64,000 nucleotides of DNA, taken from Bacteroidales bacterium (GTDB lineage Bacteria > Bacteroidota > Bacteroidia > Bacteroidales > WCHB1-69). Below, in pieces: positions 5,940-21,804 of the stretch. Position numbers and translations under genes: made by a program. Under the pieces are notes generated by a model, which did not search any database, was not told the DNA's origin, and saw only the letters and a program-made list of their open reading frames with translations. The first letter of the stretch is position 1, and each line of letters starts with the position of its first letter. The stretch lies in contig JBBQWB010000005.1 in assembly GCA_038210985.1 (NCBI GenBank), positions 19 to 64,018 on the forward strand. The letters are read 5' to 3'.

Positions 5940-8474
5940 ATGACAACTTTAAACAAGCTTTTTAAATCTACTGTTTTTCTTAGTTGTTTATTACTTTGTA
6001 ATATAGCTGTTTTTGCTCAAAAAGAAATGATATTCTTCAACCAAAATTGGAAATTCTCGTGCAACGACTCCAATGTATATCGAAATGCGAGCATCCCTGG
6101 TTCCGTTTTTACCGATTTGATGTCGAATAATATTATCGAAAATCCATTTATTAAAGATAATGAGAAAAAAATCGATTGGGTTGCTAACCAAAAATGGACT
6201 TATATTAATATATTTGATGTGGATGTTAAAAAAATATCAAAATATTCAAATATCGAAATTTGGTTTGAAGGGTTGGATACTTATACATCTATTTATTTAA
6301 ACGATTCTTTGATAATCGAATCCAACAACGCTTTTCATCCATGGTTTGCCGATGTAAAATTACTTCTTAAGCCCAAGGAGAACATTTTAAAAATAGTTTT
6401 TCAACCACTAAAGCAGATTTTAGAAGTTGCAGCTGAAAAATATCCATTTAAATTACCCGAAGGAAATCGGTTGTATGCTCGCAAACCTCAATTTCATTTT
6501 GGGTGGGATTTTGCCCCAAGTATTTTAAATATATCTATTTCTAAGCCTGTTTCTTTAAGGTTTTGGAATGGATTTTCGTTCGAAGATGTCTCTTGTGATG
6601 CAAAACCCGAAAACAACAATGGAATTTTGGGCTCACTCTTTTTTATTCGTACAAATAAAGACACATTCATGAAGTTTTCGCTTCAAATTAAAGATATTAA
6701 ATCGGGCAAAATATGGTACGATGATAAAGTTAAAACCTCGATTACCAATTTGCGATCTATCGAAGTTAAAATAGCAGATATTAAAATATGGTCGGTAAAT
6801 AATCCAAATTATTATGATGTTTTATTTACTATTTCACATTCAAAATATGGAAATCAAAGCATTCAAAAAAGGATTGGATTTCGCGATATATTATTAAAAC
6901 GGACAGCAGATTCGGTGGGAACCCAGTTTTTTATCGAATTAAATGGAAATTCTGTTTTTTGTAAAGGTGCAAACTGGGTGCCTGCAGAAGTTTTTCAACA
7001 TAAAAATTCTATCGAAAAATATCGAAAACTTTTAATTTTAGCAAAAGATGCTGGATATAATATGATTCGAGTTTGGGGAGGTGGATATTATGAGGATAAT
7101 TCTTTTTACGAACTTTGCGATAGCTTGGGAATAATGGTTTGGCAGGATTTTATGTTTGCTTGCAGTATGTATCCTTTTAATGAGGAATTTATTTCTTCGG
7201 TAAAAACCGAAGCCGATTTTCAACTTCGGCGCATGAGTAGTCATCCTTCCATTGCATTGTGGTGTGGCAACAACGAAAATACCGAAGGTTGGTTTAATTG
7301 GGGCTGGCAAAAACAATTAGGCTATTCAAAAGCTGACTCTGCCGATATCTGGAATGGCAATTACAACCTTTTTTATGTAAAATTACCTGAATGGTGTAGC
7401 TTTTATAATTTACCCAACAACTATGTGCCTTCATCGCCATTGCTTGGTTGGGGTCGGGATGCAGCATACAAATCGGGCGATATACACTATTGGGGCGTTT
7501 GGTGGGGAAACGAGCCATTTGAAAAATATACCGAAAAAGTTGGTCGATTTGTGAGCGAATATGGATTTCAGTCGTTTCCAGTAAAGTCCACCGTAGAATA
7601 TATGATGCAGGGTTCTTTGGATAGCCTTAAACATCCATATATTGCTCAGCATCAAAAACATGCTCGTGGCCATCAAACCATTGAAGAATATATGAAGCGA
7701 GATTTTTTCATTCCCGATTCTATCGATGATTATCTCTATTTATCCGAATTGCTTCAAAGTGAAGGGGTCGCCAAAGCAATTTTAGCTCATCGTTTAGCAA
7801 TGCCATATTGTATGGGAACTTTGTTTTGGCAATTTAACGACTGTTGGCCCGCTATTTCGTGGTCGGCAGTAGATTATTTTAATCAACCAAAAGCTTTTTA
7901 TTATCAAACCAAACGTTTGTTTAAAGAATTCGCTCCAATTATCATTCATCGAAACGATTCGGTTTTGTTTTACGTGAGCAATTTATCCAATAATACATGG
8001 AATGGAAAAGTTATTATCGGTAGTTTTAATGCAGATTCCAAAAAGTTAAAGTATGATACAATTATTTTAAGTAGTGAGGCAATGCATAATAAAGTAATAA
8101 TATCTTATAAACCCGATAATTTTAAAATTATGGTTTATGGAATGCAAATGATGGATAATACAGGGCTAATTTGTGGACACTTTACACTTTTTGGAAAAAA
8201 TGATATTGCTTATCGTTTTCTAAATCCACAAATAAAAACAGATGTGGTTTTAGGGTGTAATAATCCCGAATTTTCGTTCTGTTATCGAGTTTCATCAAAT
8301 GTTCCAGTGTTTGGATATAAAAATGAAAACCAAAATGGAGCTTTTACCGACAATAGCTTTCATCTTTTTCCAGGTTTTGTATATGAATTTTCCGAAATGA
8401 AAATTAATACTTCGATTACAAAATACTCTAATATTAAGTTTAAATGTCTAAATAATTTAAAATCAGAGAAATAA
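5940..8474 (+). CDS. Glycoside hydrolase family 2, beta-mannosidase-like
   Basis: Signal peptide; FEGLDTYTSIYLND, WQDFMFACSMYP, CGNNENTEGW and FVSEYGFQSFP blocks typical of GH2 beta-mannosidases; 844 aa. Confidence 0.85.
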   Translation: MTTLNKLFKSTVFLSCLLLCNIAVFAQKEMIFFNQNWKFSCNDSNVYRNASIPGSVFTDLMSNNIIENPFIKDNEKKIDWVANQKWTYINIFDVDVKKISKYSNIEIWFEGLDTYTSIYLNDSLIIESNNAFHPWFADVKLLLKPKENILKIVFQPLKQILEVAAEKYPFKLPEGNRLYARKPQFHFGWDFAPSILNISISKPVSLRFWNGFSFEDVSCDAKPENNNGILGSLFFIRTNKDTFMKFSLQIKDIKSGKIWYDDKVKTSITNLRSIEVKIADIKIWSVNNPNYYDVLFTISHSKYGNQSIQKRIGFRDILLKRTADSVGTQFFIELNGNSVFCKGANWVPAEVFQHKNSIEKYRKLLILAKDAGYNMIRVWGGGYYEDNSFYELCDSLGIMVWQDFMFACSMYPFNEEFISSVKTEADFQLRRMSSHPSIALWCGNNENTEGWFNWGWQKQLGYSKADSADIWNGNYNLFYVKLPEWCSFYNLPNNYVPSSPLLGWGRDAAYKSGDIHYWGVWWGNEPFEKYTEKVGRFVSEYGFQSFPVKSTVEYMMQGSLDSLKHPYIAQHQKHARGHQTIEEYMKRDFFIPDSIDDYLYLSELLQSEGVAKAILAHRLAMPYCMGTLFWQFNDCWPAISWSAVDYFNQPKAFYYQTKRLFKEFAPIIIHRNDSVLFYVSNLSNNTWNGKVIIGSFNADSKKLKYDTIILSSEAMHNKVIISYKPDNFKIMVYGMQMMDNTGLICGHFTLFGKNDIAYRFLNPQIKTDVVLGCNNPEFSFCYRVSSNVPVFGYKNENQNGAFTDNSFHLFPGFVYEFSEMKINTSITKYSNIKFKCLNNLKSEK

Positions 8475-8513
8475 ACTTTAATTTATAAACTTTAATTTAT
8501 AAACTTTAATTTA
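8472..8513. repeat. Three perfect tandem copies of the 14-bp unit TAAACTTTAATTTA, bridging the GH2 stop and the GH92 start
   Basis: Copies at 8472-8485, 8486-8499 and 8500-8513 are identical. The first TAA is the GH2 stop codon. The last A is the A of the GH92 ATG (8513-8515). Confidence 0.95.
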
Positions 8514-11500
8514 TGAAAACACCAAGCCGTTTATTTTTAACTAGTTTATTGAATTTCATTTTTTTATTTTTGAGTGCTCAAAAAACAAATTTTACTCAAT
8601 ATGTAAACCCATTTGTTGGTACAGGTGGACACGGACACGCTTATCCAGGAGCTCAGCTTCCATTTGGCTTTATGCAACTTAGCCCCGACACTCGTTTAGA
8701 TGGTTGGGACGGTTGTTCAGCTTATCATTATTCCGATTCGATAATTTATGGATTTTCTCACACACATCTAAGTGGCACAGGTTGTTCCGATTATGGGGAT
8801 ATATTAATAATGCCATCGGTTGGAATTAAAACTCCTGGAAATTATAATTTTGCTTCTAATTTTTCAAAAAAAACCGAAAAAGCTAGCCCTGGATACTATT
8901 CAGTATTGCTCGAAAAACCTAATGTATTGGTTGAACTTACGGCAACAGAGCGTTGTGGAATGCATAAATATACGTTTCCCAAAAAAACAGAAAAATTGGT
9001 ATTTCTCGATTTAAAACATCGCGACGAAGTGTTGGATTCATATATCGAAATAGTTAGCAATACCGAAATTAGGGGAATGCGTCGCTCCAAAGCTTGGGCA
9101 AACGATCAGCATATTTATTTTGTAATTCGATTTTCTAAACCTTTTACCAAAGCTGAAATTTTTAAAGACGATATTATTTGTTCATCTTCCATTTTTGCTC
9201 GTTCGAAAAATGTAAAATCACGATTTATTTTTTCTTCAAAATTAAGAGAACCTCTTTACCTGAAAATTGGAATCTCGGGAGTAGATACATTAGGAGCTCG
9301 CTTAAATTTAGACAAAGAAATGCCAAATTGGGATTTCGAGAAAATAGAACAACAAGCCAATGAAAAATGGAATAAAGAATTGTCTAAAATTGAAGTGGAA
9401 GGTGGAACGGATGAGCAAATGAGGGTGTTTTATTCGGCTTTGTATCATGCATTTTTGTCACCAAATGTGTTTAACGATGTTGATGGTAGATACAGAGGAC
9501 GAGATAATGAAATATACATTGCCAAAGGCTGGAATTATTATACCGTTTTTTCATTGTGGGATACTTACCGAACATTACATCCTCTTTTAACGCTAATTGA
9601 CCCAGCAAGAACACTCGATTTTATTAAAACATTTTTAGCTCAATATGAACAGTCGGGATTATTGCCAATGTGGGAATTGTCGGCTAACGAAACCGATTGC
9701 ATGATTGGATACCACGCCGTTCCGGTTATTTTTGATGCTTGGAGTAAAGGAATTAAAGACTTTGATATAAATAAGGCATACGAAGCCATGAAAGCTTCGG
9801 CAATGCAAAAAAGATTGGGAATAAGCGAAATGGATATATTGGGTTATATTCCTTCGGATTTGGAGCACGAATCCGTTTCAAAAACTTTAGAATATGCATT
9901 TGATGATTGGTGTATTGCTCAAGTTGCTAAGTCTTTAGGAAACGATGTCGATTATCAATATTTTATAAATCGGGCACAGGCTTACAAACAAGTTTTTGAT
10001 AAAAATAGTGGATTTATGCGTCCACGTTTTAATGGAGGCTGGATGAGTCCATTTGACCCAACCGAAGTAAATAATAATTATACCGAAGCAAATTCTTGGC
10101 AATATTCGTTTTATGTTCCTCATGATATCGGGACATTTATTCAGTTAATGGGCGGAAATAAAGATTTTGAAGCCAAACTCGATGCCTTGTTTGAAGCTAA
10201 AGAATCGCTTAGCGGACGGGGTCAAGTGGATATCACTGGATTAATTGGTCAATATGCTCACGGAAACGAACCCAGTCACCACATTGCGTATTTATACAAT
10301 TTTGTGGGAGCTCCCGAAAAAACACAGTTTTACGTTCGTAAAATTATGAACGATTTTTATACGTCAAAACCCGATGGACTTTGCGGAAACGAAGATTGCG
10401 GGCAAATGTCGGCATGGTTGGTAATGAGTGCAATGGGATTTTATCCAGTAACACCTGGCGTAAATTATTATTGCATTGGTTCGCCTTGGTTTAAAAAAGT
10501 AAAAATAAACTTGCCAAGTGGAAAGGTTTTCACGATAGATGCACCAAATAATTCGGAATCAAATATTTACATTAAATCTGCAAAAGTTAATGGCGTTGTA
10601 AATTTGTCTTCTTTTCTGTTATTTGAGGATATTGAAAAGGGTAGCACTTTGTATTTGGAAATGACAGATAAAAAGGGCTCAAATTTTGGCAAACAAATCG
10701 AACACATTCCTACTACCAAAATTTTAGGTGAATTATTTTGGGTAAGTCCAATTATTAATGCTGCTTCTCGAACATTTGTCGATAGCATTTTAGTGGACAT
10801 TACAAATCCAAACCAAGATGGAAAATCGCTTATTTATTATTCTACCAACGATTCAAATAAATTGGAAATGATAGAGGAGAAATCTGCATTTCCCAAGTCA
10901 AATATTTATTACACCATAGATGGAACCATTCCTAATCGAGAATCTAAAATTGCAACAAAAGTATTTTATATTCATTCAACTACTGAAATTAAATCCATAA
11001 TAATTGCCGATAATGGCAAACAAAGTTTAATTACGGAAGCAAAATTTTATTTACTACCTAAAAACGTAAGTGTAAAATTAACATATCCTTTCAATCCGCA
11101 ATATAATGCAGGTGGAGCCGAAGGTTTGGTGGATGGAATTCGCGGAACCACAAATTGGAGATTGGGAAATTGGCAGGGATATCAAGAGGCAGACTTTGAA
11201 GTAGTAATAGATTATGGTAGCGATAAAATGATTAAAACCATTGGTGCTGGTTTTTTACAAGATGCGAAATCGTGGATTTGGATGCCAACAGAAGTTGAGT
11301 ATTATACTTCTAAGGATGGTAAAACTTTTGATTTTGCCGGAAAAATTAATAATGAAATTGCTCAAGATGATTTTGAAATACAAACGCTCGATTTTCAATT
11401 CAATCTAGAAAAGCAAACTTCTGCTAGGTTTATTAAAGTAAAGGCTAAAAATATCGGAAATATTTCTAACTGGCATCCTGGTTTTGGTTTTAGAGGGTTT

Positions 11501-11536
11501 ATTTTTGTAGATGAGGTTTGGATATTGTCAAAGTAG
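8513..11536 (+). CDS. Glycoside hydrolase family 92 alpha-mannosidase with C-terminal chitobiase-C-like and F5/8 type C (discoidin) domains
   Basis: Signal peptide; GH92 hallmarks GTGGHGHAYPGAQLPFGFMQLSPDT, GFSHTHLSGTG and GNEPSHHIAYLY. The C-terminal IYYTIDGTIPN segment and the GLVDGIRGTTNWRLGNWQGY...FIKVKAKN segment look like carbohydrate-binding add-ons. Confidence 0.9.
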   Translation: MKTPSRLFLTSLLNFIFLFLSAQKTNFTQYVNPFVGTGGHGHAYPGAQLPFGFMQLSPDTRLDGWDGCSAYHYSDSIIYGFSHTHLSGTGCSDYGDILIMPSVGIKTPGNYNFASNFSKKTEKASPGYYSVLLEKPNVLVELTATERCGMHKYTFPKKTEKLVFLDLKHRDEVLDSYIEIVSNTEIRGMRRSKAWANDQHIYFVIRFSKPFTKAEIFKDDIICSSSIFARSKNVKSRFIFSSKLREPLYLKIGISGVDTLGARLNLDKEMPNWDFEKIEQQANEKWNKELSKIEVEGGTDEQMRVFYSALYHAFLSPNVFNDVDGRYRGRDNEIYIAKGWNYYTVFSLWDTYRTLHPLLTLIDPARTLDFIKTFLAQYEQSGLLPMWELSANETDCMIGYHAVPVIFDAWSKGIKDFDINKAYEAMKASAMQKRLGISEMDILGYIPSDLEHESVSKTLEYAFDDWCIAQVAKSLGNDVDYQYFINRAQAYKQVFDKNSGFMRPRFNGGWMSPFDPTEVNNNYTEANSWQYSFYVPHDIGTFIQLMGGNKDFEAKLDALFEAKESLSGRGQVDITGLIGQYAHGNEPSHHIAYLYNFVGAPEKTQFYVRKIMNDFYTSKPDGLCGNEDCGQMSAWLVMSAMGFYPVTPGVNYYCIGSPWFKKVKINLPSGKVFTIDAPNNSESNIYIKSAKVNGVVNLSSFLLFEDIEKGSTLYLEMTDKKGSNFGKQIEHIPTTKILGELFWVSPIINAASRTFVDSILVDITNPNQDGKSLIYYSTNDSNKLEMIEEKSAFPKSNIYYTIDGTIPNRESKIATKVFYIHSTTEIKSIIIADNGKQSLITEAKFYLLPKNVSVKLTYPFNPQYNAGGAEGLVDGIRGTTNWRLGNWQGYQEADFEVVIDYGSDKMIKTIGAGFLQDAKSWIWMPTEVEYYTSKDGKTFDFAGKINNEIAQDDFEIQTLDFQFNLEKQTSARFIKVKAKNIGNISNWHPGFGFRGFIFVDEVWILSK

Positions 11537-11557
11537 TGTCTTGATTGAGTTATAGAA

Positions 11558-11598
11558 GGTATAATAGATTCCTCACTGCGTTCTGAATCTATTATACC
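11558..11598. repeat. Hairpin with a perfect 14-bp stem (GGTATAATAGATTC / GAATCTATTATACC) and a 13-nt loop containing the recurrent CCTCAC word
   Basis: Arms at 11558-11571 and 11585-11598 are exact reverse complements. Begins 22 nt after the GH92 stop. Confidence 0.9.
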
Positions 11599-11601
11599 GA
11601 A

Positions 11602-11684
11602 GAGCTAGTTCGGATTTGCAATCCGAACAAACAAAAAACTGCTTGGATTACGTTAAGCTCGGATTGCAAATCCGAGCAAACCGA
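11602..11684 (+). repeat. Intergenic repeat module A (twin hairpin GTTCGGATTTGCAATCCGAAC ... GCTCGGATTGCAAATCCGAGC), copy 1
   Basis: Hairpins at 11608-11628 and 11657-11677. The same roughly 80-bp module recurs at 56419-56498 and 63784-63864, and in a fused single-hairpin form at 47431-47464. Confidence 0.9.
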
Positions 11685-11790
11685 ACACCTAAATAAATTA
11701 ACAGTATATGCTTTTGTTTCAGGTTATTATAAAATTCTGTCTTTGGTAACGAAACGAAGTGGAGTGAGGAATCACTTATATCGAAGAACT

Positions 11791-11858
11791 GGTTCGCCAC
11801 GGCGAAGTCGAAGCATCCGCAGTCTCCTTCTACTTCGCCGTGGCGAATCAGGATGGTT
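11791..11858 (-). repeat. Intergenic repeat module B, full palindromic form
   Basis: Arms TTCGCCACGGCGAAGTCGAAG (11793-11813) and CTTCTACTTCGCCGTGGCGAA (11827-11847), with one mismatch. Each arm contains the inner palindrome TTCGCC-NN-GGCGAA. The reverse complement matches half copies at 21901-21962, 56222-56275 and 63867-63912. Confidence 0.85.
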
Positions 11859-11956
11859 GCTCTTGATAAAACCCCAATATATATCAGTATGTCAATGTAT
11901 TATAAGGTTTAGACATTGTTAATAAAACGTAGTGCGATGATAAATTTAAAACAAAA

Positions 11957-12122
11957 GTGTTGTTTGTAAACAACAAAAAGTAATATAAATTGTTGTGTTA
12001 ATACAACAATAAAAGATATAAACGTTGTGAACAAACAACAGAAAAATATTAAAAATAACTAATACAAACAACAAAAAATAAATTAAAATAACATATAGAT
12101 ACAACAAAAAGCATTAATTTTG
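11957..12122 (+). repeat. Array of five phased ACAACA(A/G)(A/T)AAA boxes (period 32-33 bp), the first three embedded in GTTGT..ACAAC inverted repeats; ends at the -7 box of the ATPase gene
   Basis: Boxes start at 11970, 12003, 12035, 12068 and 12101. Inverted repeats are TGTTGTTT-GT-AAACAACA, ATTGTTGT-GTTAAT-ACAACAAT and GTTGT-GAACAA-ACAAC. Confidence 0.8.
12115..12122 (+). promoter_or_regulatory. Bacteroidota -7 promoter box TAATTTTG (consensus TAnnTTTG) upstream of the ATPase gene
   Basis: Exact match to TAnnTTTG, ending 20 nt before the ATG at 12143. No clear -33 TTTG at canonical spacing. Confidence 0.45.
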
Positions 12123-12142
12123 TGGTATGAAAACAATGTATT

Positions 12143-13339
12143 ATGGAGCAGTTAATTAAATTTTCGCAAATAAAAGTTAGTAAAACGAATTTCAATTTCA
12201 CTAGATATTTGCTAGATACCATCGAGTGGAGCGACCGACTTATTGGCATTAAAGGGTCGAGGGGAGTTGGAAAAACTACCCTTATGCTCCAGCGCTTAAA
12301 AAAAGAGTATGGCAATTCAACCCAAGCAATGTATGTGTCATTAGATGACTTTTATTTTACAAAACACCGATTTTTTGATTTTGCCGAACAATTTTACATC
12401 ATGGGAGGAAGAGTTTTATTTGTGGATGAAGTTCATCGGTATCCTAATTGGTCACTCGAAATTAAAAATCTTTACGATGTATATGACGAATTAAAAATAG
12501 TTTTTTCTGGATCATCGGCTTTACAGATTCAAAAAGCAGATGGTGATTTGAGCCGAAGAGCTGCCATTTATAATTTGCATGAATTGTCGTTTAGAGAATA
12601 TTTATTATTGTCAAATAAAATGTCGTATAAATCATTCAGTTTAAATGATATTTTAACTAATCATCCCGAAATTGCGATGGATATTTCAAAGCAAGTTGTC
12701 ATCATTCCACTTTTTAATCAATATCTTCGCGAAGGTTTATACCCTTTTTTTATGGAAGCAAAGGGACAGTTTTATGATCGTTTAATAAATACCATAAACA
12801 CAATTATCGAAAGTGATTTGCAAATTATTGAAAATATAAACTACCAAACTACTTATAAACTTCGTCAATTGGTTGCTGTTCTTGCGGATAGTGTGCCTTT
12901 TAAGGTAAATATTTCGGAATTAAGTCGTAAAGTTGAGATGAGTCGAGATTTATTGTTGCGATTGATTATTTCCTTAGATAGAGCAAATCTTATAAAAACC
13001 TTACAAATAGAGGGTTCAGCCATAGGGTATTTAACAAAACCTGATAAAATATACTTAAATAATACCGAATTGTTATTTGCTTTACATAGTGGTAAAGAAA
13101 ATTTTGAAGGAACCGTTCGAGAAACTTTTTTTATGAATCAAATGATTCAGTCGCATAATGTTAAATCGTCAAAAACGGGTGATTTTTTAATTGATGAGCA
13201 ATTCACATTTGAGGTGGGTGGTGCTAAAAAAAGTTTTAATCAAATTGCAGGCATCGATAAATCCTATGTGGTAGCCGATAATATCGAACTTGGCTACGGT
13301 AATAAAATTCCACTTTGGTTGTTCGGATTTATGTATTAA
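12143..13339 (+). CDS. AAA+ ATPase of the AAA_14/DUF4143 type (function unknown)
   Basis: Walker A GIKGSRGVGKTTLM and Walker B VLFVDEVHRYPNW. The size (398 aa) and layout are typical of the widespread ATP-binding DUF4143 family. Confidence 0.8.
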   Translation: MEQLIKFSQIKVSKTNFNFTRYLLDTIEWSDRLIGIKGSRGVGKTTLMLQRLKKEYGNSTQAMYVSLDDFYFTKHRFFDFAEQFYIMGGRVLFVDEVHRYPNWSLEIKNLYDVYDELKIVFSGSSALQIQKADGDLSRRAAIYNLHELSFREYLLLSNKMSYKSFSLNDILTNHPEIAMDISKQVVIIPLFNQYLREGLYPFFMEAKGQFYDRLINTINTIIESDLQIIENINYQTTYKLRQLVAVLADSVPFKVNISELSRKVEMSRDLLLRLIISLDRANLIKTLQIEGSAIGYLTKPDKIYLNNTELLFALHSGKENFEGTVRETFFMNQMIQSHNVKSSKTGDFLIDEQFTFEVGGAKKSFNQIAGIDKSYVVADNIELGYGNKIPLWLFGFMY

Positions 13340-13398
13340 TAATTATTTCGATAATTTTCGTCATAGTAAAAGACCAATAATAAATGATCTAAAATTAG

Positions 13399-14340
13399 AT
13401 GACTAAAAAAAAATTAAAAGGGACGATACTGTTAATTTGGGTGGCTTTTTTAATGCTTAACATAATTGCGTGTTTTCATGCATACAAGTTCACGCATTTT
13501 TCGGATGAGATTGGCGAAAAATCGAAAGATCCGCAAAAATTATCCTCCTTTGAAAAAATTAAAACATTGATGTTTGGTATCGACAATCCAAGACCAACAA
13601 ACAATTTACGTCCAACCCAGCCATTCGAAACCATAAAATTAAAAGGCACCAAAGAAATCGAATGTTGGAGTATAAAAGTCGATAGTTCTAAAGGAACAGT
13701 AGTTTTGTTTCATGGTTTTAGCGGGCAAAAATCTTCGATGTTGGATAAGTCAGATGAGTTTATTAAACTTGGGTATAGTACATTTTTGGTTGATTTTATG
13801 GGCTCAGGAGGTTCGGAAGGCAATCAAACTACTTTGGGCTTTTTTGAAGCCGAACAAGTGAAATCCTGTTTCGACTATTTAGTTGAAAAAGGAGAAAAAA
13901 ATATTTGTTTATTTGGAACATCTATGGGAGCTGTTGCCATTTTAAAAGCCATGGATGAATTCAAATTAAAGCCTGCAACCATAATTATCGAATGCCCTTT
14001 TGGTTCGACGTACGAAACTGTTTGTGCACGGTTTCACAACATGAATATTCCTGCTTTTCCAATGGTAAGTTTACTGGTGTTTTGGGGTGGTTTGCAAAAT
14101 GGTTTTTGGGCATTTAATCACAATCCAACCAAATATGCAAAAAATGTAAATTACCCAACTTTATTATTTTATGGCGAAAAAGATGAAAAAGTAAGCCGAA
14201 ATGAAGTTAACGAAATCTTTGCTAATTTAAATGGAAAAAAGAAACTAGTAACTTTTCCTTTAGCATGGCACGAGAATTATCTATTAAAATACAAGGAAAA
14301 ATGGGTTTTTGAAACGGAGGCTTTTTTGACAAATCAATAA
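13399..14340 (+). CDS. Alpha/beta hydrolase with N-terminal membrane anchor
   Basis: N-terminal TM helix, HGFSG oxyanion region, nucleophile elbow GTSMGA, C-terminal W-H (LAWHENY) region. Confidence 0.8.
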   Translation: MTKKKLKGTILLIWVAFLMLNIIACFHAYKFTHFSDEIGEKSKDPQKLSSFEKIKTLMFGIDNPRPTNNLRPTQPFETIKLKGTKEIECWSIKVDSSKGTVVLFHGFSGQKSSMLDKSDEFIKLGYSTFLVDFMGSGGSEGNQTTLGFFEAEQVKSCFDYLVEKGEKNICLFGTSMGAVAILKAMDEFKLKPATIIIECPFGSTYETVCARFHNMNIPAFPMVSLLVFWGGLQNGFWAFNHNPTKYAKNVNYPTLLFYGEKDEKVSRNEVNEIFANLNGKKKLVTFPLAWHENYLLKYKEKWVFETEAFLTNQ

Positions 14341-14453
14341 ATAAAAGAACTTTTATTGCAACTAATTTGTTAAAATTATCGTCCAAAATGAATTCTATAT
14401 TAATTATTTATTTGAAATTAAATTATTATATTCATAAAACTGAATTTATTTTT

Positions 14454-14461
14454 TAAATTTG
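14454..14461 (+). promoter_or_regulatory. -7 box TAAATTTG upstream of the five-gene cluster
   Basis: Exact TAnnTTTG match ending 18 nt before the ATG at 14480. Confidence 0.45.
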
Positions 14462-14479
14462 CTCATAAAAACATACTAA

Positions 14480-14845
14480 ATGAAAATTTTAATATTTAGT
14501 TTCACACTAACTTTAATTGTTTTTTTATTTTCTTCTTGTCGTTCCGAAAGTGAAGAAAAATATTTTAGCAGTTTGGTGGCAATTCACACCTGTGATACAA
14601 TATCTGTTACTTACAATAATCAAATTAAAGCAATTTTCGAATCAAAATGTTTAGAATGTCATACCGCTGGTGCTGTTGCGGGTTGCGATTTAGATTCGTA
14701 CGAACATTCAACTAGTTATATTCAATCAACCCAGCCAATCTCTAGGTTATACGATTATGTTAAAAACAACGACCATCAAGGCGTTATTTTAGACACGTGC
14801 AGTTTAAAACAATTAGCCAAATGGATGCTAAATCCAGCTCCTTAA
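14480..14845 (+). CDS. Small lipoprotein with a single CXXCH heme-c binding motif (PSCyt1-like)
   Basis: Lipobox LFSSC; motif IFESKCLECHTAG (C-L-E-C-H); 121 aa. First gene of a five-gene same-strand cluster. Confidence 0.65.
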   Translation: MKILIFSFTLTLIVFLFSSCRSESEEKYFSSLVAIHTCDTISVTYNNQIKAIFESKCLECHTAGAVAGCDLDSYEHSTSYIQSTQPISRLYDYVKNNDHQGVILDTCSLKQLAKWMLNPAP

Positions 14846-14870
14846 AATTTAAAACTAAATTTAAAATTTT

Positions 14871-15746
14871 ATGCGTAAACTAGCTTTCGTATGCATCGCT
14901 TTATTACTGTTTGTTTTAACTTATGCTCAAGATAGCATTCCTATCGTTGATGATTTTGGCAACGACTCACCCATTATCGATAAAACATTTCCGACTATTC
15001 AAATTTTTAATTTTCCGACTACCGATGTTTTGACAAAAGGTGAAATGAAAGTACATATTGGTCATCGTATGGGTGAAATTAGTACTGGAATAGATGGGCT
15101 TTTTGGTCTATTTACAGCCAATTCACGTATTGGTGCCGATATGGGTTTAATCAAAAACGTAACTATTGGAATTGGCTCAACTAGTCAGCAAAAAAATTAC
15201 GACGCATACCTAAAGTATCGCATAATTCAACAAGGAAATCACAAAATGCCTTTTACTGTTTCATTACTTTCAGATATTTTGGTTACGAATGCGAGTGTTA
15301 ATTATCCGGATGGAAAAGATGAATTATGGCGAAAATTGTCTTATTTTTCCACGTTAATGTTATCGCGAAAGTTTTCCGAAAAGTTTTCAGCTCAGCTCTC
15401 TTTTGATGTAATTCATAAAAATTTGGTGGCTACTTCGGATGATAAAAACACCATGTTTTCGGGTGGATTAGCTTTAAATTATAAACTAAATAGAATTTGG
15501 TATTTAGCAGGCGAATACAACTATTTTCCAAAAGATCAAATAAATTCAGTTCATGTTTCAAGCAACCAAATTTCATTAGGATTTCAAATTCACACTGGAC
15601 CTCGCCATGTATTTCAAATTTTCATTTCAAATTCGGGAGGACTTAACGAAAGTAAAATTATTACCGAAACTCTTCATCAAGGTAAAATGAATCCAAGTCA
15701 TATCCGAATTTGTTTCAATATCCCAACTACATTCAAATTATATTAA
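14871..15746 (+). CDS. Putative outer-membrane beta-barrel protein (DUF5777-like)
   Basis: Signal peptide ending AQ, an alternating hydrophobic strand pattern throughout, and a C-terminal aromatic residue (...TTFKLY). The family assignment is from memory and is not verified. Confidence 0.6.
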   Translation: MRKLAFVCIALLLFVLTYAQDSIPIVDDFGNDSPIIDKTFPTIQIFNFPTTDVLTKGEMKVHIGHRMGEISTGIDGLFGLFTANSRIGADMGLIKNVTIGIGSTSQQKNYDAYLKYRIIQQGNHKMPFTVSLLSDILVTNASVNYPDGKDELWRKLSYFSTLMLSRKFSEKFSAQLSFDVIHKNLVATSDDKNTMFSGGLALNYKLNRIWYLAGEYNYFPKDQINSVHVSSNQISLGFQIHTGPRHVFQIFISNSGGLNESKIITETLHQGKMNPSHIRICFNIPTTFKLY

Positions 15747-15761
15747 TCAAAAACTTATTTT

Positions 15762-16619
15762 ATGAAAAAACTCATCTTTTTATTTTGTATGACTCTTTTA
15801 GCTAATGGATTAGTATTTGCCGAATTTATTAGTAATAACAGCATAAGTAAACCAAAGTCAAACAAGCCCGAAGTTATTTCGGTGTTAAATCAAGGCGATA
15901 CTACTATGCTATTTCAGGTAAAAACTGTAACGTATAATGGACAATATGGTCCTCGGCATGTGTTTGCAATTTGGATTACTAACGAAAGCGATCAATATAT
16001 TACAAGCTTAAAAGTTAGAGCAGCAACGTACAAAGCGAAGCTTAACAAATGGAAAACATACTCGGGAGGAGTTGTGCCAGTTGATGCCATAAGTGGACCT
16101 ACTCTTACTACTCATCAAACTCATGTGGTTGCTTGGAACGGCAAAAATGTTAATGGTTCAGTTGTTCCCGATGGAAACTACCGTGTTTATGTGGAGTTTA
16201 ATGAAACAAATAATACTTCTGGAAATCCTAATACATACGTTACATTTACCAAAGGAGCATCAAATCAACACCTAACACCTGCCAATACAAGCTATTTTCA
16301 AAATATGGATTTGCAGTTTTTTACTCCAACTAGTATTTCAAATTTTGAATCTGAAAAAAGCATTTCTTTTTCAGTATCTCCTAATCCGGTAAAAGAAGTT
16401 GCTCAAATTCAGGTAATCCTATTTAAATCAGAAAGAGTAAGTATTGATATTTATTCCATTAATGGAATAATGGTTCATTCATTCCAAGCAAATGTTTATC
16501 CCGAAGGACAACATGCTTTTTTATGGTATCCATTCGACTCGGATGTTAAAAGCGGTACATATTTTGCAAGACTCACCGCCGGAAAATCCGTTAAAATTCA
16601 AAAAATCATCGTTAAATAA
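15762..16619 (+). CDS. DUF2271-like protein fused to a type A T9SS C-terminal sorting domain
   Basis: Signal peptide. The core HVFAIWITNESDQYITSLKV ... VDAISGPTLT ... VPDGNYRVYVEF resembles DUF2271. The C-terminal roughly 80 aa (FSVSPNPVKE...GTYFARLTAGKSVKIQKIIVK) is a Por_Secre_tail-type CTD. Confidence 0.7.
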   Translation: MKKLIFLFCMTLLANGLVFAEFISNNSISKPKSNKPEVISVLNQGDTTMLFQVKTVTYNGQYGPRHVFAIWITNESDQYITSLKVRAATYKAKLNKWKTYSGGVVPVDAISGPTLTTHQTHVVAWNGKNVNGSVVPDGNYRVYVEFNETNNTSGNPNTYVTFTKGASNQHLTPANTSYFQNMDLQFFTPTSISNFESEKSISFSVSPNPVKEVAQIQVILFKSERVSIDIYSINGIMVHSFQANVYPEGQHAFLWYPFDSDVKSGTYFARLTAGKSVKIQKIIVK

Positions 16620-16625
16620 TACATT

Positions 16626-16991
16626 ATGAAAAAAATATTAATATTCTCCTTACTATTATTAAGCACTACAATTTCGGCAATAGCATGCGATATTACACTT
16701 AAAGTTGAAAAAGAAAAAAGTGTTTATTCGGTTGGAGATGAAATAGTTGTAAAAATTACGATTGTGTTAATTCATCGTGATTGTCCTATTAATATTAAAA
16801 ACACCCAATTAACCCCAGTAAATTTGAAAATACTTCAAGGAACCGATTGGAAAGAAGTTTCAAAAGGTACTTGGGAACGCAAGCTTAAACTTAAAGTATT
16901 AGAAACAAATCAAAAAGAGGCTACTTTAACGGTGCTAAGAACATGTGAACGGGAAGGTGGAAAAGCTATATTGAAATTTAAGTTGAAGTAA
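16626..16991 (+). CDS. Small secreted hypothetical protein (4 Cys)
   Basis: Signal peptide MKKILIFSLLLLSTTISAIA; 121 aa. The gap is 6 nt to the upstream gene and 3 nt to the downstream gene. Confidence 0.6.
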   Translation: MKKILIFSLLLLSTTISAIACDITLKVEKEKSVYSVGDEIVVKITIVLIHRDCPINIKNTQLTPVNLKILQGTDWKEVSKGTWERKLKLKVLETNQKEATLTVLRTCEREGGKAILKFKLK

Positions 16992-16994
16992 AAC

Positions 16995-18080
16995 ATGAAA
17001 AATATTTTTGGATTTAAGTTGATTTTAGTTTTACTTACTATCTTTTTAGGTTTTGGAGGATTTAATTTAACTCCTAAATTAATTTCTGCCACACATCAAA
17101 CTACTGTTCAACAAACCACCGAGGAGGATGAATTTAAAGATTTTGACGAGACAGCCGACACGGTTGCCACTTGTAATGGCGATTGTGCATCTTGTCCGAA
17201 TAGTCAAACCGAAGTTGTCAACGATTCATTAATTTCTAACAGTACTTGGTGGATTATTGCAATCCTAGCAACTACTGTAATTGCTGGTGTTTTGGTGCGA
17301 TTTAAAACTACAAGAAAATTCAGAATTTTATTTTTGTTAGGTTCGGTGGTCTTTTTTGGAGTTTATCGCGGAACTTGTCCATGTATGATTTCTTCGTTCG
17401 AAAATTTTGTTTTAACTCTAACTGGTGCAGATTTTGTTTGGTATCATTTATTGTGGTTTATAGGACTAATTCCGATTACCTATTTATTTGGAAGGGTTTT
17501 TTGTGGCTGGATTTGCCATCTTGGAGCACTTCAGGAATTACTTTATCGTCCTGGGAAATTCAAATTTTTTACTTCAAAAAGAGCTCGTATTGTAATGAAA
17601 GTGATGCAATATGTTCTATTTGCCACCTTAGTTATTCAACTCATTGTTCAACAAGAAATATTTTGGTGTAAAATAGATCCATTTTTGGCTATTTATCAGT
17701 TAATGCTGGCATATAATTACGAAATTTTGAGTATTGTTTTAATTTCACTTTTACTTATAACATCACTTTTATCTTATCGCCCATTTTGCAGAGCTGCTTG
17801 TCCGGTTGGATTAGTTTTGGGTTGGATTGAAAAGATACCAGGTGCAACTATTATTGGTCTGAAAAACGATGCTTGTATTAGTTGTGTAAGTTGTTCAAAA
17901 ACTTGCGATATTGAAGCAATTTATAAAAACAAAAAGCAAACAATACTAAATAACGAAGAGTGTATTATGTGCGGTGAATGTATGGATTCGTGTTTACAAA
18001 GCGGGTTAGGTATTTTTAGAGTTTCTAAAAAACGCCTTTCTAAATGCTCTTTTGATTCGAGCAAATGCGAAAATAAATAA
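16995..18080 (+). CDS. NapH/MauN-like membrane polyferredoxin (4Fe-4S binding protein)
   Basis: Several TM helices; loop motifs CGWICHLGALQE and RPFCRAACPVG (CX3C / CX3CP); two ferredoxin motifs CISCVSCSKTC and CIMCGECMDSC. There is an extra N-terminal CNGDCASCP cluster. Confidence 0.85.
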   Translation: MKNIFGFKLILVLLTIFLGFGGFNLTPKLISATHQTTVQQTTEEDEFKDFDETADTVATCNGDCASCPNSQTEVVNDSLISNSTWWIIAILATTVIAGVLVRFKTTRKFRILFLLGSVVFFGVYRGTCPCMISSFENFVLTLTGADFVWYHLLWFIGLIPITYLFGRVFCGWICHLGALQELLYRPGKFKFFTSKRARIVMKVMQYVLFATLVIQLIVQQEIFWCKIDPFLAIYQLMLAYNYEILSIVLISLLLITSLLSYRPFCRAACPVGLVLGWIEKIPGATIIGLKNDACISCVSCSKTCDIEAIYKNKKQTILNNEECIMCGECMDSCLQSGLGIFRVSKKRLSKCSFDSSKCENK

Positions 18081-18114: not shown

Positions 18115-18194
18115 CTTTGTTGGTGTTATCATCAACAAAGTAAACTTATAAAATAAATTTAGGCAATACACTGTTGGAGTAAACACCAACAGTG
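18115..18194. repeat. Two GTTGG/CCAAC-type hairpins (module C family) downstream of the polyferredoxin gene
   Basis: CTTTGTTG(18115-18122)/CAACAAAG(18133-18140) and CACTGTTGG(18169-18177)/CCAACAGTG(18186-18194). A related hairpin, CCCGTTGGTG-ATAA-CACCAACGGG, lies at 21985-22008. Confidence 0.75.
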
Positions 18195-18230
18195 GAGGAA
18201 ACAGTGGATGAAAAGATTATTTTTTAAATT

Positions 18231-18569: not shown

Positions 18570-18609
18570 TATTTACATGTATGAATTTATGAATTCATAC
18601 ATGTAAATA
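18570..18609. terminator. Perfect 18-bp-stem hairpin with 4-nt loop; possible bidirectional terminator between convergent genes
   Basis: TATTTACATGTATGAATT-TATG-AATTCATACATGTAAATA, checked base by base. It lies 61 nt downstream of the AraC stop (minus strand). There is no adjacent U-tract on either strand. Confidence 0.4.
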
Positions 18610-18669: not shown

Positions 18670-19884
18670 TTAATTGTTTTTTCTAAAATCAGTAGGAGTA
18701 TATCCCGTATTCCTTTTAAAAGATGTGTTAAAAGATGACTTTGAATGAAATCCAACCATATTAGCGATAGCTTCAATGGTATATAATCTTCCTTTTTCGG
18801 ATAATAAAATGGCTTTCGAATCTTCAATTCGATAATTATTTATAAACGTAAAAAAATTCACATTGTAGTGTTCGTTGATAATTTGCGATAAATATCTCGT
18901 GTTAGTTCCAAGCGTATCCGAAATGTCTTCAATGGTAACTTTACTGTTGTGGTATGGTTTTGATAATAAATACTCTTCTAATTTGATGATAAGTTCTTGT
19001 TTGTATTCACTAGTTAATGGTGAGCTGGAGTATTTCTTTTTAATTTCTTCGTATTCAATGCTTTCAGTATTATCCTTGATGTCTAAATCCGAAGTAATTT
19101 TAATTTTATTTTTCAATAAATTATAAATGTTAGTTTGCAATATGGCTTTAATGCCAAAATAAAGGTTTACCAATGCAAAAACAACATTTATTACGATACG
19201 AATCCAAATATCGTTGTTTATACCAACAAATAGGGTGAAAAATGACAATAGAAAAAAAGCTAAAAAAATACCAACAAAAACATTAAGCCATTTAAGATTG
19301 ATTATTTCGGTATAGGAAAAGAAGAATTTTATGTTTTTATGATGTCGTTTAATCAATCGATAAAATAAAATTGGATAAATAATCATTTGGCCTATTAATC
19401 CGATATATACACCTATGCGGAAAACCCAAATAATGAAAGTCCAAATATTAGGGATGTCAATATTTTTAAAACCGTAGTTGATAAAATCAATTTTTTCCTG
19501 AATGGACAAAAATAAGTATGGAGTAAGTAAAATTGAAATTACCAATGTTGGGATAAAATGAATGAAAATGGTTTTGTTATTGGTTGGCTTAATTTGAGTA
19601 ATTGAATCGACATACAAATAAAATAATGGGAGCACTACAAAGGTAATGGGAAGAGTGAAGTAAAAAGCCCAAACTATTGCATCCAATTTTTCGTAGTAAA
19701 AAGCATAGGAGATTATGAAAAAGCCAAAAATGGACAGTTTGTACAAAGCCATGAAAATATAGTTGCTTTTTTTTGTCGAAATAAAAAGACTAATAAATAT
19801 GACAAAAAACAATAAGCCCTGATGTGCAGGAACTAGCGATAGTATTTTGTCAAACTGTTCAATAAAAGGCTCCATGATATCCAA
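18670..19884 (-). CDS. AraC family transcriptional regulator with N-terminal multi-pass membrane domain
   Basis: About 7-8 hydrophobic helices over the first 250 aa. The C-terminal AraC HTH (ISDTLGTNTRYLSQIINEH...IANMVGFHSKSSFNTSFKRNTGYTPTDFR) is clear. Confidence 0.85.
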   Translation of the reverse strand: MDIMEPFIEQFDKILSLVPAHQGLLFFVIFISLFISTKKSNYIFMALYKLSIFGFFIISYAFYYEKLDAIVWAFYFTLPITFVVLPLFYLYVDSITQIKPTNNKTIFIHFIPTLVISILLTPYLFLSIQEKIDFINYGFKNIDIPNIWTFIIWVFRIGVYIGLIGQMIIYPILFYRLIKRHHKNIKFFFSYTEIINLKWLNVFVGIFLAFFLLSFFTLFVGINNDIWIRIVINVVFALVNLYFGIKAILQTNIYNLLKNKIKITSDLDIKDNTESIEYEEIKKKYSSSPLTSEYKQELIIKLEEYLLSKPYHNSKVTIEDISDTLGTNTRYLSQIINEHYNVNFFTFINNYRIEDSKAILLSEKGRLYTIEAIANMVGFHSKSSFNTSFKRNTGYTPTDFRKNN

Positions 19885-19889
19885 AAAGA

Positions 19890-20351
19890 TTAATAACCTC
19901 GTGTTTTTCCAGTTATTTTTTCAATTTCAATATCGTAAACAACAACATTGTTAACTGCTGGTTCGCTATATGTAAATTGATCTTTGCCCGAATATTTTTT
20001 CATAACCATATTTAATACTCTGATTTTTTCTTCATTGCTTTCGATTTTTTTAGTTTTTCCCCAAAGCAAAACACTTTTGTATAACATTCCCCAGCTGCAT
20101 GCAACATCTTCGTGTTGACGATACATTTTGTGATCGCAACTAAAAGCAACACAAATTTGATTGTTTTTTTCAAGTATTCTTTGTTTTTTGCCACCAGGTC
20201 CTGAATGAATGTATAAGTGGTTTTCCTCAAAAGCAAAGTTAAAAGGTAAAACATAAGGAATTGTGTCGTCCACCATTCCAACATAACAAACTTCACATTT
20301 ATTTATAATGTTGAAAATTTCCTCGTGATTGTCTAAAAATTTACTGTTCAT
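19890..20351 (-). CDS. Pyridoxamine 5'-phosphate oxidase family (flavin-binding split-barrel) protein
   Basis: 153 aa. The pattern CEVCYVGMVDDTIPYVLPFNFAFEENHLYIHSGPGGKK is typical of Pyridox_ox_2-type proteins. Confidence 0.75.
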   Translation of the reverse strand: MNSKFLDNHEEIFNIINKCEVCYVGMVDDTIPYVLPFNFAFEENHLYIHSGPGGKKQRILEKNNQICVAFSCDHKMYRQHEDVACSWGMLYKSVLLWGKTKKIESNEEKIRVLNMVMKKYSGKDQFTYSEPAVNNVVVYDIEIEKITGKTRGY

Positions 20352-20751: not shown

Positions 20752-20931
20752 ATGCACATCGATTTTGATGCTAAAGTAAGATTTTTTTGTGTAATAATTT
20801 TTGTTTGCTAAATTTCTTTTGGAAAAATAATCGATAAATATTAAAAAGAACATTTTTTTTTCAATTTAATGCATTGTAGTAATAAATTTTTATTAATTTT
20901 AACCCGATATTTTAAATTAAAAATTATAATT

Positions 20932-21804
20932 ATGAAAAAAACCAACCTTTTTTTGAGTTTAATGCTTATGCTGCTTATCAGCAATTTATCTTTTGGTCAA
21001 ACCCAGCCACCAAATGGAGATTTTGAAACTTGGGAAAATACTAGTAAAGCTACTGGATGGACATCGTCGTTAAATGTTATTTCGCAAATTGAGTTTTTAG
21101 AACAGACGAACGAATTTCACGATGGTACTTATGGGGCAAAAATTACGTCTAAAGATATTTTTGGCGTTGCAATACCTGGTATTTGTACGTATGGAAATAT
21201 TAACGTTGATATGGGGGCTATGTCTGCCAAAATAACTGGAGGAAAAGCTTTTACCAATCGTCCTGTTAAATTTTCGGGATGGTACAAATATGCTCCTCTT
21301 GGCACCGACTCGATGATTGTTTTATGTGTGTTAACGAAATTTGATCCACTTTCGGGCAATAGCGACACCGTTGGTACTGCTTTTTTTATTAATACTATTT
21401 CAAATTCTACTTATGAAAAATTTGAAGTTGCTTTTGAGTATGATAATTCAGCAACCCCAGATACTATGAATATTACTATTTTATCTTCTGGATTTAGTTC
21501 AACTCCTGGTTCAGCTCTTATTATTGATGAACTGAAATTTGATTATGCGGTGAATGTTAACGATAACCAAGCATCAGATTTTTATATCTATCCAAACCCT
21601 TCAAATGGTGTGTATAATGTAAATTTGACCAAAAATGAAACTACTCGTTTTACAGTTTATAATTCGTTGGGACAAATGGTGTATCAAAACACAAGCAACG
21701 ACATCGTAAATATAATAGATTTAAGCCAATTTAAAAAAGGACTATATTTACTTGAGATTAATAATGGAAAGTCAATAAAAACCAGAAAATTGACTTTAAA
21801 ATAG
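20932..21804 (+). CDS. T9SS type A cargo protein, function unknown
   Basis: The start is moved to MKKTNLFLSLMLMLLISNLSFGQ (ATG 20932). The C-terminal FYIYPNPSNGVYNVNL...GLYLLEINNGKSIKTRKLTLK is a Por_Secre_tail CTD. A strong terminator follows. Confidence 0.75.
   Translation: MKKTNLFLSLMLMLLISNLSFGQTQPPNGDFETWENTSKATGWTSSLNVISQIEFLEQTNEFHDGTYGAKITSKDIFGVAIPGICTYGNINVDMGAMSAKITGGKAFTNRPVKFSGWYKYAPLGTDSMIVLCVLTKFDPLSGNSDTVGTAFFINTISNSTYEKFEVAFEYDNSATPDTMNITILSSGFSSTPGSALIIDELKFDYAVNVNDNQASDFYIYPNPSNGVYNVNLTKNETTRFTVYNSLGQMVYQNTSNDIVNIIDLSQFKKGLYLLEINNGKSIKTRKLTLK

Follow-up and report, generated by a model that had tools for sequence, protein, structure and literature searches.

Most of what is understood about extracellular electron transfer comes from two sources, the multihaem conduits of Proteobacteria and a flavin-based pathway found in Firmicutes. 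For Bacteroidota, a phylum abundant in guts, sediments and digesters, metagenomics gives no more than hints of this ability. The subject here is a five-gene operon (g1 to g5) at positions 14480-18080 of a 64 kb stretch of DNA from an uncultured Bacteroidales bacterium, a stretch called the window throughout. In order, the genes encode a monohaem lipoprotein, a DUF5777 outer-membrane (OM) barrel, a DUF2271 protein with a sorting domain of the type IX secretion system (T9SS), a small immunoglobulin-like (Ig-like) protein and a NapH-like polyferredoxin. The evidence throughout is computational and comes from comparative genomics of uncultured organisms, which supports a redox reading of the locus. 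With roughly even confidence, the operon can be regarded as encoding a modular chain for extracytosolic electron transfer whose last member is a surface-displayed flavoprotein.

Several described systems share parts of this design. In the NosR/PceC NapH-like systems (PMC8238504), as here, a multi-pass Fer4_5/CX3CP membrane protein carries a cytoplasmic di-cluster ferredoxin domain and is coupled genetically to a secreted protein with an ApbE-type flavinylation motif. Most flavinylated NapH-like proteins hold a flavin mononucleotide (FMN)-binding domain, FMN-bind, at their N-terminus (PMC8238504), whereas the flavin carrier of the operon would be a separate, T9SS-exported DUF2271 protein, and the Ig-like domain of g4 would fill the N-terminal periplasmic position of the NapH-like protein. 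The operon differs further by including an OM barrel and a haem lipoprotein and by the lack of a linked terminal reductase (NosZ, PceA, NirS). A second group, the clusters of PepSY-like, DUF2271, DUF4198 and ApbE genes (PMC8238504, PMC11870441), likewise combines a DUF2271 substrate with a membrane electron-transfer protein and a small secreted beta-sandwich partner, which is DUF4198 there and g4 here. In contrast to those clusters, the membrane protein of the operon is NapH-like instead of PepSY-like, neither DUF4198 nor ApbE is present, the DUF2271 protein has a T9SS sorting domain, and a cytochrome and a barrel are added. DUF2271 has been shown experimentally to be flavinylated by ApbE at an [S/T]GA[S/T] motif (Meheust et al. 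2021, eLife, PMC8238504), and DUF2271 operons of other bacteria are tied to ferric reduction and iron acquisition (PMC8238504; Caulobacter fitness data, PMC11870441). T9SS-linked DUF2271, DUF5777 and a g4-like partner are not discussed in PMC8238504, and its text supplements contain no PF19089, DUF5777, PF18962 or Lentimicrobium.

The OM part of the operon invites comparison with the porin-cytochrome conduits MtrCAB of Shewanella and OmaB-OmbB-OmcB of Geobacter, where an OM barrel gene also stands beside genes for c-type cytochromes and a surface redox protein. The likeness extends to sister loci, in which DUF5777 lies among 5-7-haem cytochromes and NapC/NirT- and b561-type proteins. Unlike these conduits, the operon has a barrel predicted to be 12-stranded, there is one CXXCH in the whole window and no multihaem cytochrome beside the barrel, and the distal component would be a T9SS-exported flavoprotein rather than a type II-secreted decahaem lipoprotein. 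Compared by architecture, Cyc2 is similar in that one CXXCH haem and one modest barrel make up the OM unit. The haem domain of Cyc2 is an N-terminal fusion, however, whereas here it is a separate lipoprotein open reading frame (ORF) 25 nt from the barrel gene; the DUF5777 barrel is also smaller and of another family, and a probable bis-His haem with flavin and Fe-S partners argues for reduction over Fe(II) oxidation. The DsbD-type clusters of ApbE, DUF4266, DUF3570 and thioredoxin-like genes (PMC8238504) have in common with the operon a small lipoprotein or secreted redox protein, a presumed OM-associated protein and flavinylation. Here a haem lipoprotein stands in for DUF4266, DUF5777 for the flavinylated DUF3570 and a NapH-like protein for DsbD.

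Conservation of the gene order and of the g1-g2 pair

Sixty-eight loci, anchored on relatives of g3, g2 and g4 and annotated with hidden Markov models (HMMs) built from collected sequences, were compared. The order g1-g4, with its tight spacing, recurs in more than 10 independent loci from metagenomes or metagenome-assembled genomes (MAGs) at 38-82% identity; the arrangement of these genes is not due to chance. Order and spacing are kept, with similar divergence, at 38-75% identity to the window (across genes and loci) in L001, L002, L004, L057, L058 and L008, and the order is also recognisable by HMM matches in L056, L059, L062, L065 and L068. L001, which is the same as L007, belongs to a Bacteroidales MAG, and L008 to a Lentimicrobiaceae MAG, the closest genome. 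g5 lies directly after g4 in the window, L002/L003, L008, L052 and L068 but in no other locus; L057 has it in divergent orientation about 3 kb away, and the visible flanks of L001, L004, L056, L058, L059 and L062 do not contain it. Judged by gene order, the conserved unit is g1-g4, with g5 as a frequent accessory. The preliminary description had made its case depend on co-conservation of the five genes and on their membership of redox families. The first holds for g1-g4, while g5 adjoins them in about half of the loci only; as to the second, HMM and structure searches bear out the proposed families (DUF5777, DUF2271 with T9SS, Fer4_5, probable c-type haem) and do not point to unrelated ones.

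Two of these loci have peculiarities of their own. In L008 (1428-4358), g1 reads CIECR in place of CXXCH and the g3 and g4 ORFs are truncated or overlapping, a state that could reflect decay or an assembly error. In L004 (7332-8529), g1 is immediately preceded by a gene for an extracytoplasmic function (ECF) sigma-70 factor and a 202-aa gene, possibly that of an anti-sigma factor. Crp-type regulators take their place in the multihaem clusters, and neither kind of regulator adjoins the window operon.

The first two genes also travel as a pair. Among the distinct DUF5777 loci for which upstream sequence exists, only two lack a gene for a small CXXCH lipoprotein homologous to g1 directly upstream: L008, with its CIECR, and L067, which has no g1 gene. 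Three main DUF5777 contexts can be told apart: the YceI type, the multihaem clusters and the window type. The YceI context (L005 7611-9455, L006 7619-9456) consists of a Met-Pro monohaem lipoprotein, DUF5777, YceI and a tRNA_anti-like protein; L067 (5175-6921) has YceI and DUF5777, the cytochrome gene being absent. In the multihaem context, represented by L017, L021, L023, L028, L033, L038, L041, L044, L049 (around 8000-16000) and L066 (3879-12630), the g1 homologue and DUF5777 are flanked by a 5-6-haem lipoprotein and a 7-haem cytochrome. The typical order is 5-6-haem lipoprotein, g1 homologue, DUF5777, sometimes a cytochrome c, 7-haem cytochrome, b561 and NapC/NirT-like protein, where cytochrome b561 and the 6-haem NapC/NirT-like protein are found in most loci. 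A Crp regulator accompanies these clusters, ResB/CcsA is also present in L066, and a DUF2271-PKD-T9SS gene lies beside the cluster in 9 of the 10 loci (all but L066). The clusters are found in Bacteroidales and Lentimicrobiaceae MAGs. The analogy with porin-cytochrome conduits that the preliminary description drew is independently strengthened by the occurrence of the g1-DUF5777 pair inside multihaem clusters, but a barrel predicted to have 12 strands would not be MtrAB-like.

The multihaem clusters show some further features. Their 5-6-haem lipoprotein has a collagen-like GPAGPAG stretch, and DUF5777 is the sole barrel inside the cytochrome cluster; in L044 a small OMP_b-brl gene adjoins the DUF2271-PKD gene. 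Elsewhere, a 55 kb contig of ENA ERZ27297709 (P0119) encodes in one run a T9SS protein, a lysyl-oxidase-like/Ig_7/T9SS protein, a 706-aa NapH-like/TPR fusion, a cytochrome c, DUF5777 and a 135-aa protein, linking NapH-like, cytochrome c, DUF5777 and T9SS elements.

The five proteins

All five genes lie on the forward strand. g1 (14480-14845, 121 aa) encodes a lipoprotein with the lipobox LFSS-C20 and a single c-type haem site, C57-L-E-C-H61 (CLECH), just as had been described. In an alignment of 16 g1 homologues C20, C57, C60 and H61 are invariant. Single-sequence Pfam cytochrome matches of g1 all stay below the cutoff; with a profile built from the 16 homologues, class I cytochromes c are matched with E values of 1e-3 to 1e-4. 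Among the structures that the profile matches are c6 (over its full length), PccH (4rlr), FoxE (5mab) and CcoP, the match to the Fe(II) oxidase FoxE being weak (E = 0.006). The alignment points to His98 as the probable distal haem ligand. Met-Pro, the classical distal ligand of class I cytochromes, occupies the distal-ligand column in the YceI context, and His takes its place in the multihaem and window-type contexts. Since His replaces Met-Pro there, the haem of g1 would be bis-His and of low potential in flavin and multihaem contexts, which fits its flavin and Fe-S partners. Directly after the lipid-anchor cysteine comes an acidic stretch, RSESEE. Because this resembles the K-(D/E)2 lipoprotein export signal of Bacteroidota (PMC5080379), g1 may face the surface rather than the periplasm, so that of the periplasm-facing lipoprotein once proposed the lipoprotein stands and its orientation is doubtful. 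Two extra cysteines, C38 and C107, are both present in the window, L002 and L004 and both missing in the L001 orthologue, a pattern that suggests a structural disulfide. C69 (GCDLD) is confined to the window-type subfamily.

g2 (14871-15746, 291 aa) has a signal peptide and the C-terminus FKLY, and it matches DUF5777 (Pfam PF19089) at 1.3e-59 and 201.8 bits (cutoff 23.1) over profile positions 1-247 of 247, in agreement with the OM barrel that its strand-like pattern had suggested. The AlphaFold2 (AF2) model, with a predicted local distance difference test score (pLDDT) of 87, has 12 strands and one helix (residues 70-82). In fold comparison it comes nearest to NanC, KdgM, OmpG and FapF, channels of 12-14 strands, along with COG4313 channels. 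A barrel with a multihaem protein inside it has some 20-26 strands. On the model, the g2 barrel is too narrow to enclose a cytochrome or haem domain, and a 12-strand barrel implies a conduit mechanism that would not be MtrAB-like; an MtrB-like sheath was considered for g2 and rejected on the strand count of the AF2 model. A cytochrome domain is found in none of 85 DUF5777 relatives, and a full-text literature search for DUF5777 returned no paper. His65 and His246 of DUF5777 are invariant and His182 is nearly so, within the motifs HRFG, IHRNLV and GGHVFQI; invariant histidines are unusual for an OM barrel.

g3 (15762-16619, 285 aa) begins with MKKLIFLFCMTLLANGLVFA, which reads as a signal peptide. 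A DUF2271 domain spans about residues 40-200 (PF10029, 37.5 bits against a cutoff of 27.3, residues 57-168) and is followed by a sorting domain at residues 205-285 (Por_Secre_tail, PF18962, 32.3 bits, cutoff 27; TIGR04183, 36.9 bits, cutoff 23). The profile of the sorting domain matches the solved T9SS cargo domains 8glk_D and 8glj_D. With all models above their cutoffs, the DUF2271-like core and type A T9SS sorting domain of the preliminary description are upheld, and g3 and all its relatives retain the sorting domain. The link to flavinylation is less straightforward. Most of 26 aligned g3 relatives carry DA[IV][ST]GA[ST] at the motif position, and orthologues read SGAS, but the window copy reads D108-A-I-S-G-P-T114, an SGPT in which Ala is swapped for Pro and which departs from the canonical [ST]GA[ST]. 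GPT is also found in two distant relatives (P0032, P0033), and seven further relatives are off [ST]GA[ST]: P0014 has TGET, P0025, P0034 and P0035 have TSAT/TAAT, P0026 has TGST, and P0028 and P0030 have TGVT. An independent assembly (L050) contains an identical g3 protein, so the proline is not an assembly error. The 285-aa g3 is not found exactly on a database record; what is recorded is a 276-aa version from a 1 kb contig. L001 has a DUF2271-T9SS paralogue that adjoins thioredoxin-like, ApbE, DUF4266 and DUF3570 genes 5 kb upstream of the g1-g4 cluster, a cluster type described as a hybrid thioredoxin/flavinylation system (PMC8238504).

g4 (16626-16991, 121 aa) encodes a basic secreted protein with an isoelectric point (pI) of 9.5 and a Sec-type signal peptide that belongs to no described family; the model is an Ig-like beta-sandwich (pLDDT 83). 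The preliminary description counted four cysteines, and the actual number is three (C21, C53 and C107), C21 being the first residue past the signal peptide. The family comprises 268 representative clusters, and C21, H50, C53, W75, R105 and C107 are conserved in at least 94% of its aligned members. g4 might hold a metal-thiolate site or a redox-active pair of thiols. Identification of g4 as a cupredoxin, FixG_C or DUF4198-like protein finds no backing in the fold search. In P0262 a g4 domain is naturally fused to the N-terminus of a NapH-like protein, and g4 and NapH-like genes are paired in a second cluster type; given the fusion and this pairing, g4 is best read as a partner of the NapH-like protein and not as an anonymous extra. 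The second cluster type is represented by L054 (6817-10902), L055 (4317-8579), L060 (1796-7369), L063 (2455-6960) and L064 (6983-12235). The two genes are directly adjacent in L054, L055, L060 and L063; in L064 a 95-aa ORF parts g4 from the NapH-like ORF, which was found through the g5 alignment alone. After the pair come genes for a secreted protein of some 430 aa, which lacks a Pfam match and has an OM-type C-terminus (...AELRITF), and for a Tat-signal polyferredoxin carrying 6-13 4Fe-4S motifs. L060 has a DUF2271-PKD-T9SS gene ahead of the pair. These sister clusters look like a 'porin-polyferredoxin' counterpart of the porin-cytochrome clusters.

g5 (16995-18080, 361 aa) matches Fer4_5 (PF12801) at 53.1 bits (cutoff 22) in two stretches and falls below the NapH cutoffs (TIGR02163, 75.1 bits against 213; NF007013, 65.2 against 234). 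By these scores it is NapH-like and not a NapH orthologue. It has five or six hydrophobic segments, the loops CGWICHLG and RPFCRAACPVG and two CX2CX2CX3C motifs, and so answers to the multi-pass polyferredoxin that had been described. Hydropathy and charge place an acidic N-terminal region (residues 23-78) with CX3CX2CP, as well as a CPC motif, on the predicted periplasmic side, and CX3CH, CX3CP and the two CX2CX2CX3C [4Fe-4S] motifs on the predicted cytoplasmic side; the periplasmic and the other cysteine motifs are conserved in the g5 alignment. None of the five proteins has an FMN_bind match among Pfam and curated HMMs. In g5 residues 23-78 (16995-17230) and in the homologues from L054-L064 there is a low-complexity acidic-aromatic stretch with repeats such as DEFxEF and DDEFSEF, and in NapH-like proteins this stretch is followed by a cluster of two or three cysteines. 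The acidic region could bind metal or dock g4.

A proposed electron path and its alternatives

If the operon is an electron-transfer chain, electrons would pass from g5 in the inner membrane to g4 in the periplasm, then to g1 and g2 at the OM and finally to the FMN of g3 at the surface. The NapH-like protein would take them up on its cytoplasmic [4Fe-4S]/CX3C(P/H) side from quinol or a cytoplasmic donor and hand them to its periplasmic face. There, basic g4 with its Cys3-His site would dock, electrostatically we infer, on the acidic (pI 4.1), cysteine-bearing N-terminal region of g5, holding the place that the FMN-bind domain has in NosR/PceC-type NapH-like proteins. At the OM, the probably bis-His monohaem g1 would work with the 12-strand DUF5777 barrel: a linker or the haem edge might enter the barrel, g1 might itself be exposed at the surface, or the barrel might be merely a solute channel. 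g3 would be flavinylated by ApbE in the periplasm, then exported by the T9SS and anchored as the distal redox centre. Of these parts, the inner-membrane module (g5 with g4) is optional, and g1, g2 and g3 make up the core at the OM and surface. The role of such a chain would most likely be to reduce an extracellular or surface oxidant, and Fe(III) or other metals and humic-type acceptors lead because of the links between DUF2271 and iron and because of the multihaem sister clusters. A broader and distinctly more tentative proposal is that DUF5777 and a bis-His monohaem lipoprotein constitute a new OM electron-transfer unit of Bacteroidota, unlike MtrAB, which would be served by interchangeable inner modules (multihaem NapC/b561 or NapH-like/g4) and feed a flavinylated, T9SS-displayed DUF2271 protein.

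A number of points weigh against an electron-transfer chain. The NapH-like gene that would supply it is missing beside the cluster in about half of the loci, and the flavinylation-type motif of the window copy of g3 is the off-consensus SGPT. With 12 strands in the barrel model, a continuous cofactor path over the OM cannot be drawn. The fold neighbours of g4 are all generic Ig-like domains (such as ICAM, titin and MHC), none of them informative, and its Sec-type signal peptide makes a pre-assembled Fe-S cluster unlikely. One haem and one flavin are thin for a respiratory flux. HMM searches of the 64 kb window detected neither ApbE nor genes for cytochrome c maturation, an electron donor or a terminal reductase; that ApbE and an obvious terminal reductase are missing had already been remarked in the preliminary description. 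Finally, the homologues all come from uncultured organisms.

Alternatively, the operon could serve mainly in periplasmic reductive metal uptake, with g1, g3 and g4 as a periplasmic or inner-leaflet set for Fe(III)/Cu(II) reduction and metal handling that is fed by the NapH-like protein, and with the barrel as a solute channel letting in the metal chelate or the reduced ion. The PepSY-DUF2271-DUF4198 systems and CcoG would be the parallels. CcoG, a Fer4_5 polyferredoxin with an Ig-like domain, reduces Cu(II), and the Cys3-His of g4 in its Ig-like fold would fit a metal site. One haem and one flavin would suit a low assimilatory flux, the 12-strand barrel resembles the small solute channels NanC, KdgM and OmpG, a TonB-dependent receptor lies near the L002 cluster, and DUF2271 operons have been linked to iron reduction and acquisition (PMC8238504, PMC11870441). 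We nevertheless consider this role unlikely, as g3 and every one of its relatives have a T9SS sorting domain, from which a location at the surface or outside the cell is predicted, and the g1-g2 pair is found in clusters of at least 20 haems that look respiratory rather than assimilatory; moreover, Feo, VIT1 and TonB-dependent transporter genes are not consistently linked, and none adjoins the window operon. Electrons could also flow inward, if the surface flavoprotein, the monohaem-barrel pair or both oxidised an extracellular donor such as Fe(II) or reduced humics, with g4 and the NapH-like protein relaying the electrons to the membrane pool. Flavinylated systems could run in either direction (PMC8238504), a single haem with a small barrel recalls the fused cytochrome-porin Cyc2 (PMC6344600), and there is the weak FoxE match of the g1 profile (5mab, E = 0.006). 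Such a direction is improbable, however: a probable bis-His haem and flavin/Fe-S partners would point to low potentials, better for donation, and the NapC/NirT- and b561 quinol-dehydrogenase-type parts and Crp/FNR-type regulators are typical of anaerobic reductive respiration. Lentimicrobiaceae, for their part, are described as fermenters or putative electrogens, Lentimicrobium having recently been proposed as an electrogen from a different, giant cytochrome cluster (PMC13013709).

The cysteines of the operon raise another possibility, namely a DsbD-like thiol relay in which those of g5 and g4 reduce the flavoprotein for the repair of surface or T9SS cargo, for protection or for oxidant detoxification. 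The periplasm-facing CX3CX2CP and CPC of g5 and the three cysteines of g4 are conserved, and the L001 paralogue of g3 sits with thioredoxin-like, DUF4266 (CXC motif), ApbE and DUF3570 genes. A relay of this kind would leave the conserved haem lipoprotein and barrel without a role, does not square with the occurrence of the g1-g2 pair in multihaem clusters, and finds no thioredoxin-fold or DsbD gene in the operon or window; its chance is slim. It is just as hard to credit that g1-g3 and g4-g5 are chance neighbours or that this copy is non-functional. To be sure, about half of the loci do without g5, g4-g5 pairs stand without g1-g3 in L054, L055 and L063 (and more loosely arranged in L064), the SGPT motif of the window is off consensus, and the closest MAG, L008, has the CIECR g1 with truncated g3 and g4. 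Yet g4 comes directly after g3, whether or not g5 is there, in the 12 distinct loci with both genes recognised and in L068, where g3 is fragmented; gaps of 3-25 nt with no internal terminator indicate co-transcription; and L060 joins a DUF2271-PKD-T9SS gene directly to g4-NapH. As to decay, the five ORFs of the window are intact, and the independent assembly L050 has the identical g3.

Should the electron-transfer chain be borne out, putative functions would follow for DUF5777, a family without literature, and for the undescribed g4 family, and the T9SS would be tied to redox biology. The locus and its sister clusters already provide a testable parts list: DUF5777 barrel, monohaem lipoprotein, T9SS-displayed DUF2271 protein and Ig-like NapH partner. 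They also raise a mechanistic question, that of how electrons cross the OM when the sole barrel is too narrow for a cytochrome.

Promoter, terminator and flanking genes

The ORF list agrees with the preliminary description in giving five same-strand genes separated by 25, 15, 6 and 3 nt, and they form a genuine five-gene operon. A candidate promoter, TAAATTTG, lies at 14454-14461 on the forward strand, 18 nt 5' of the g1 ATG, and fits the Bacteroidota -7 box. The box is present as had been described, but the TANNTTTG pattern is at chance level in the window (110 observed against 107 expected in shuffled sequence). As the pattern is not enriched, the promoter role of TAAATTTG is backed by position alone, and the box is weak evidence of a promoter. 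A sigma-70 promoter scan was uninformative, with 20 promoter-like sites against 26 expected.

The repeat hairpins reported downstream of g5 are indeed present. One lies at 18115-18140 with 11-nt arms and the other at 18169-18194 with 12-nt arms; they have TGTTGG/CCAACA cores in common, and a T run comes next. Together, the two hairpins and the T run (18115-18226, forward strand) make up a candidate operon terminator with a minimum free energy of -38.8 kcal/mol (z = -2.6), although a simple intrinsic-terminator scan did not call them. In a search of the window and of the operon region, Rfam recognised no riboswitch and no other RNA family; its sole matches are spurious microRNAs that arise from a palindrome at 18570-18609.

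The genes around the operon are unrelated to it. Upstream are GH92, AAA_14 and alpha/beta hydrolase genes, and downstream are a convergent AraC-type regulator, a PNPOx-like gene, a holin-like gene and a further T9SS cargo gene (20869-21804). The AraC-type membrane regulator (18670-19884) and the PNPOx-like gene (19890-20351) were considered as parts of the system and rejected, being convergent and not kept beside the cluster in L002, L004 and L068. Apart from g1 and g5, no protein with CXXCH or 4Fe-4S motifs was detected anywhere in the 64 kb window. The palindrome at 18570-18609, between the operon and the convergent AraC-type gene, consists of two perfectly matching inverted arms of 18 nt (TATTTACATGTATGAATT / AATTCATACATGTAAATA) around a 4-nt spacer, and may serve as a terminator in both directions or as a binding site for a protein.

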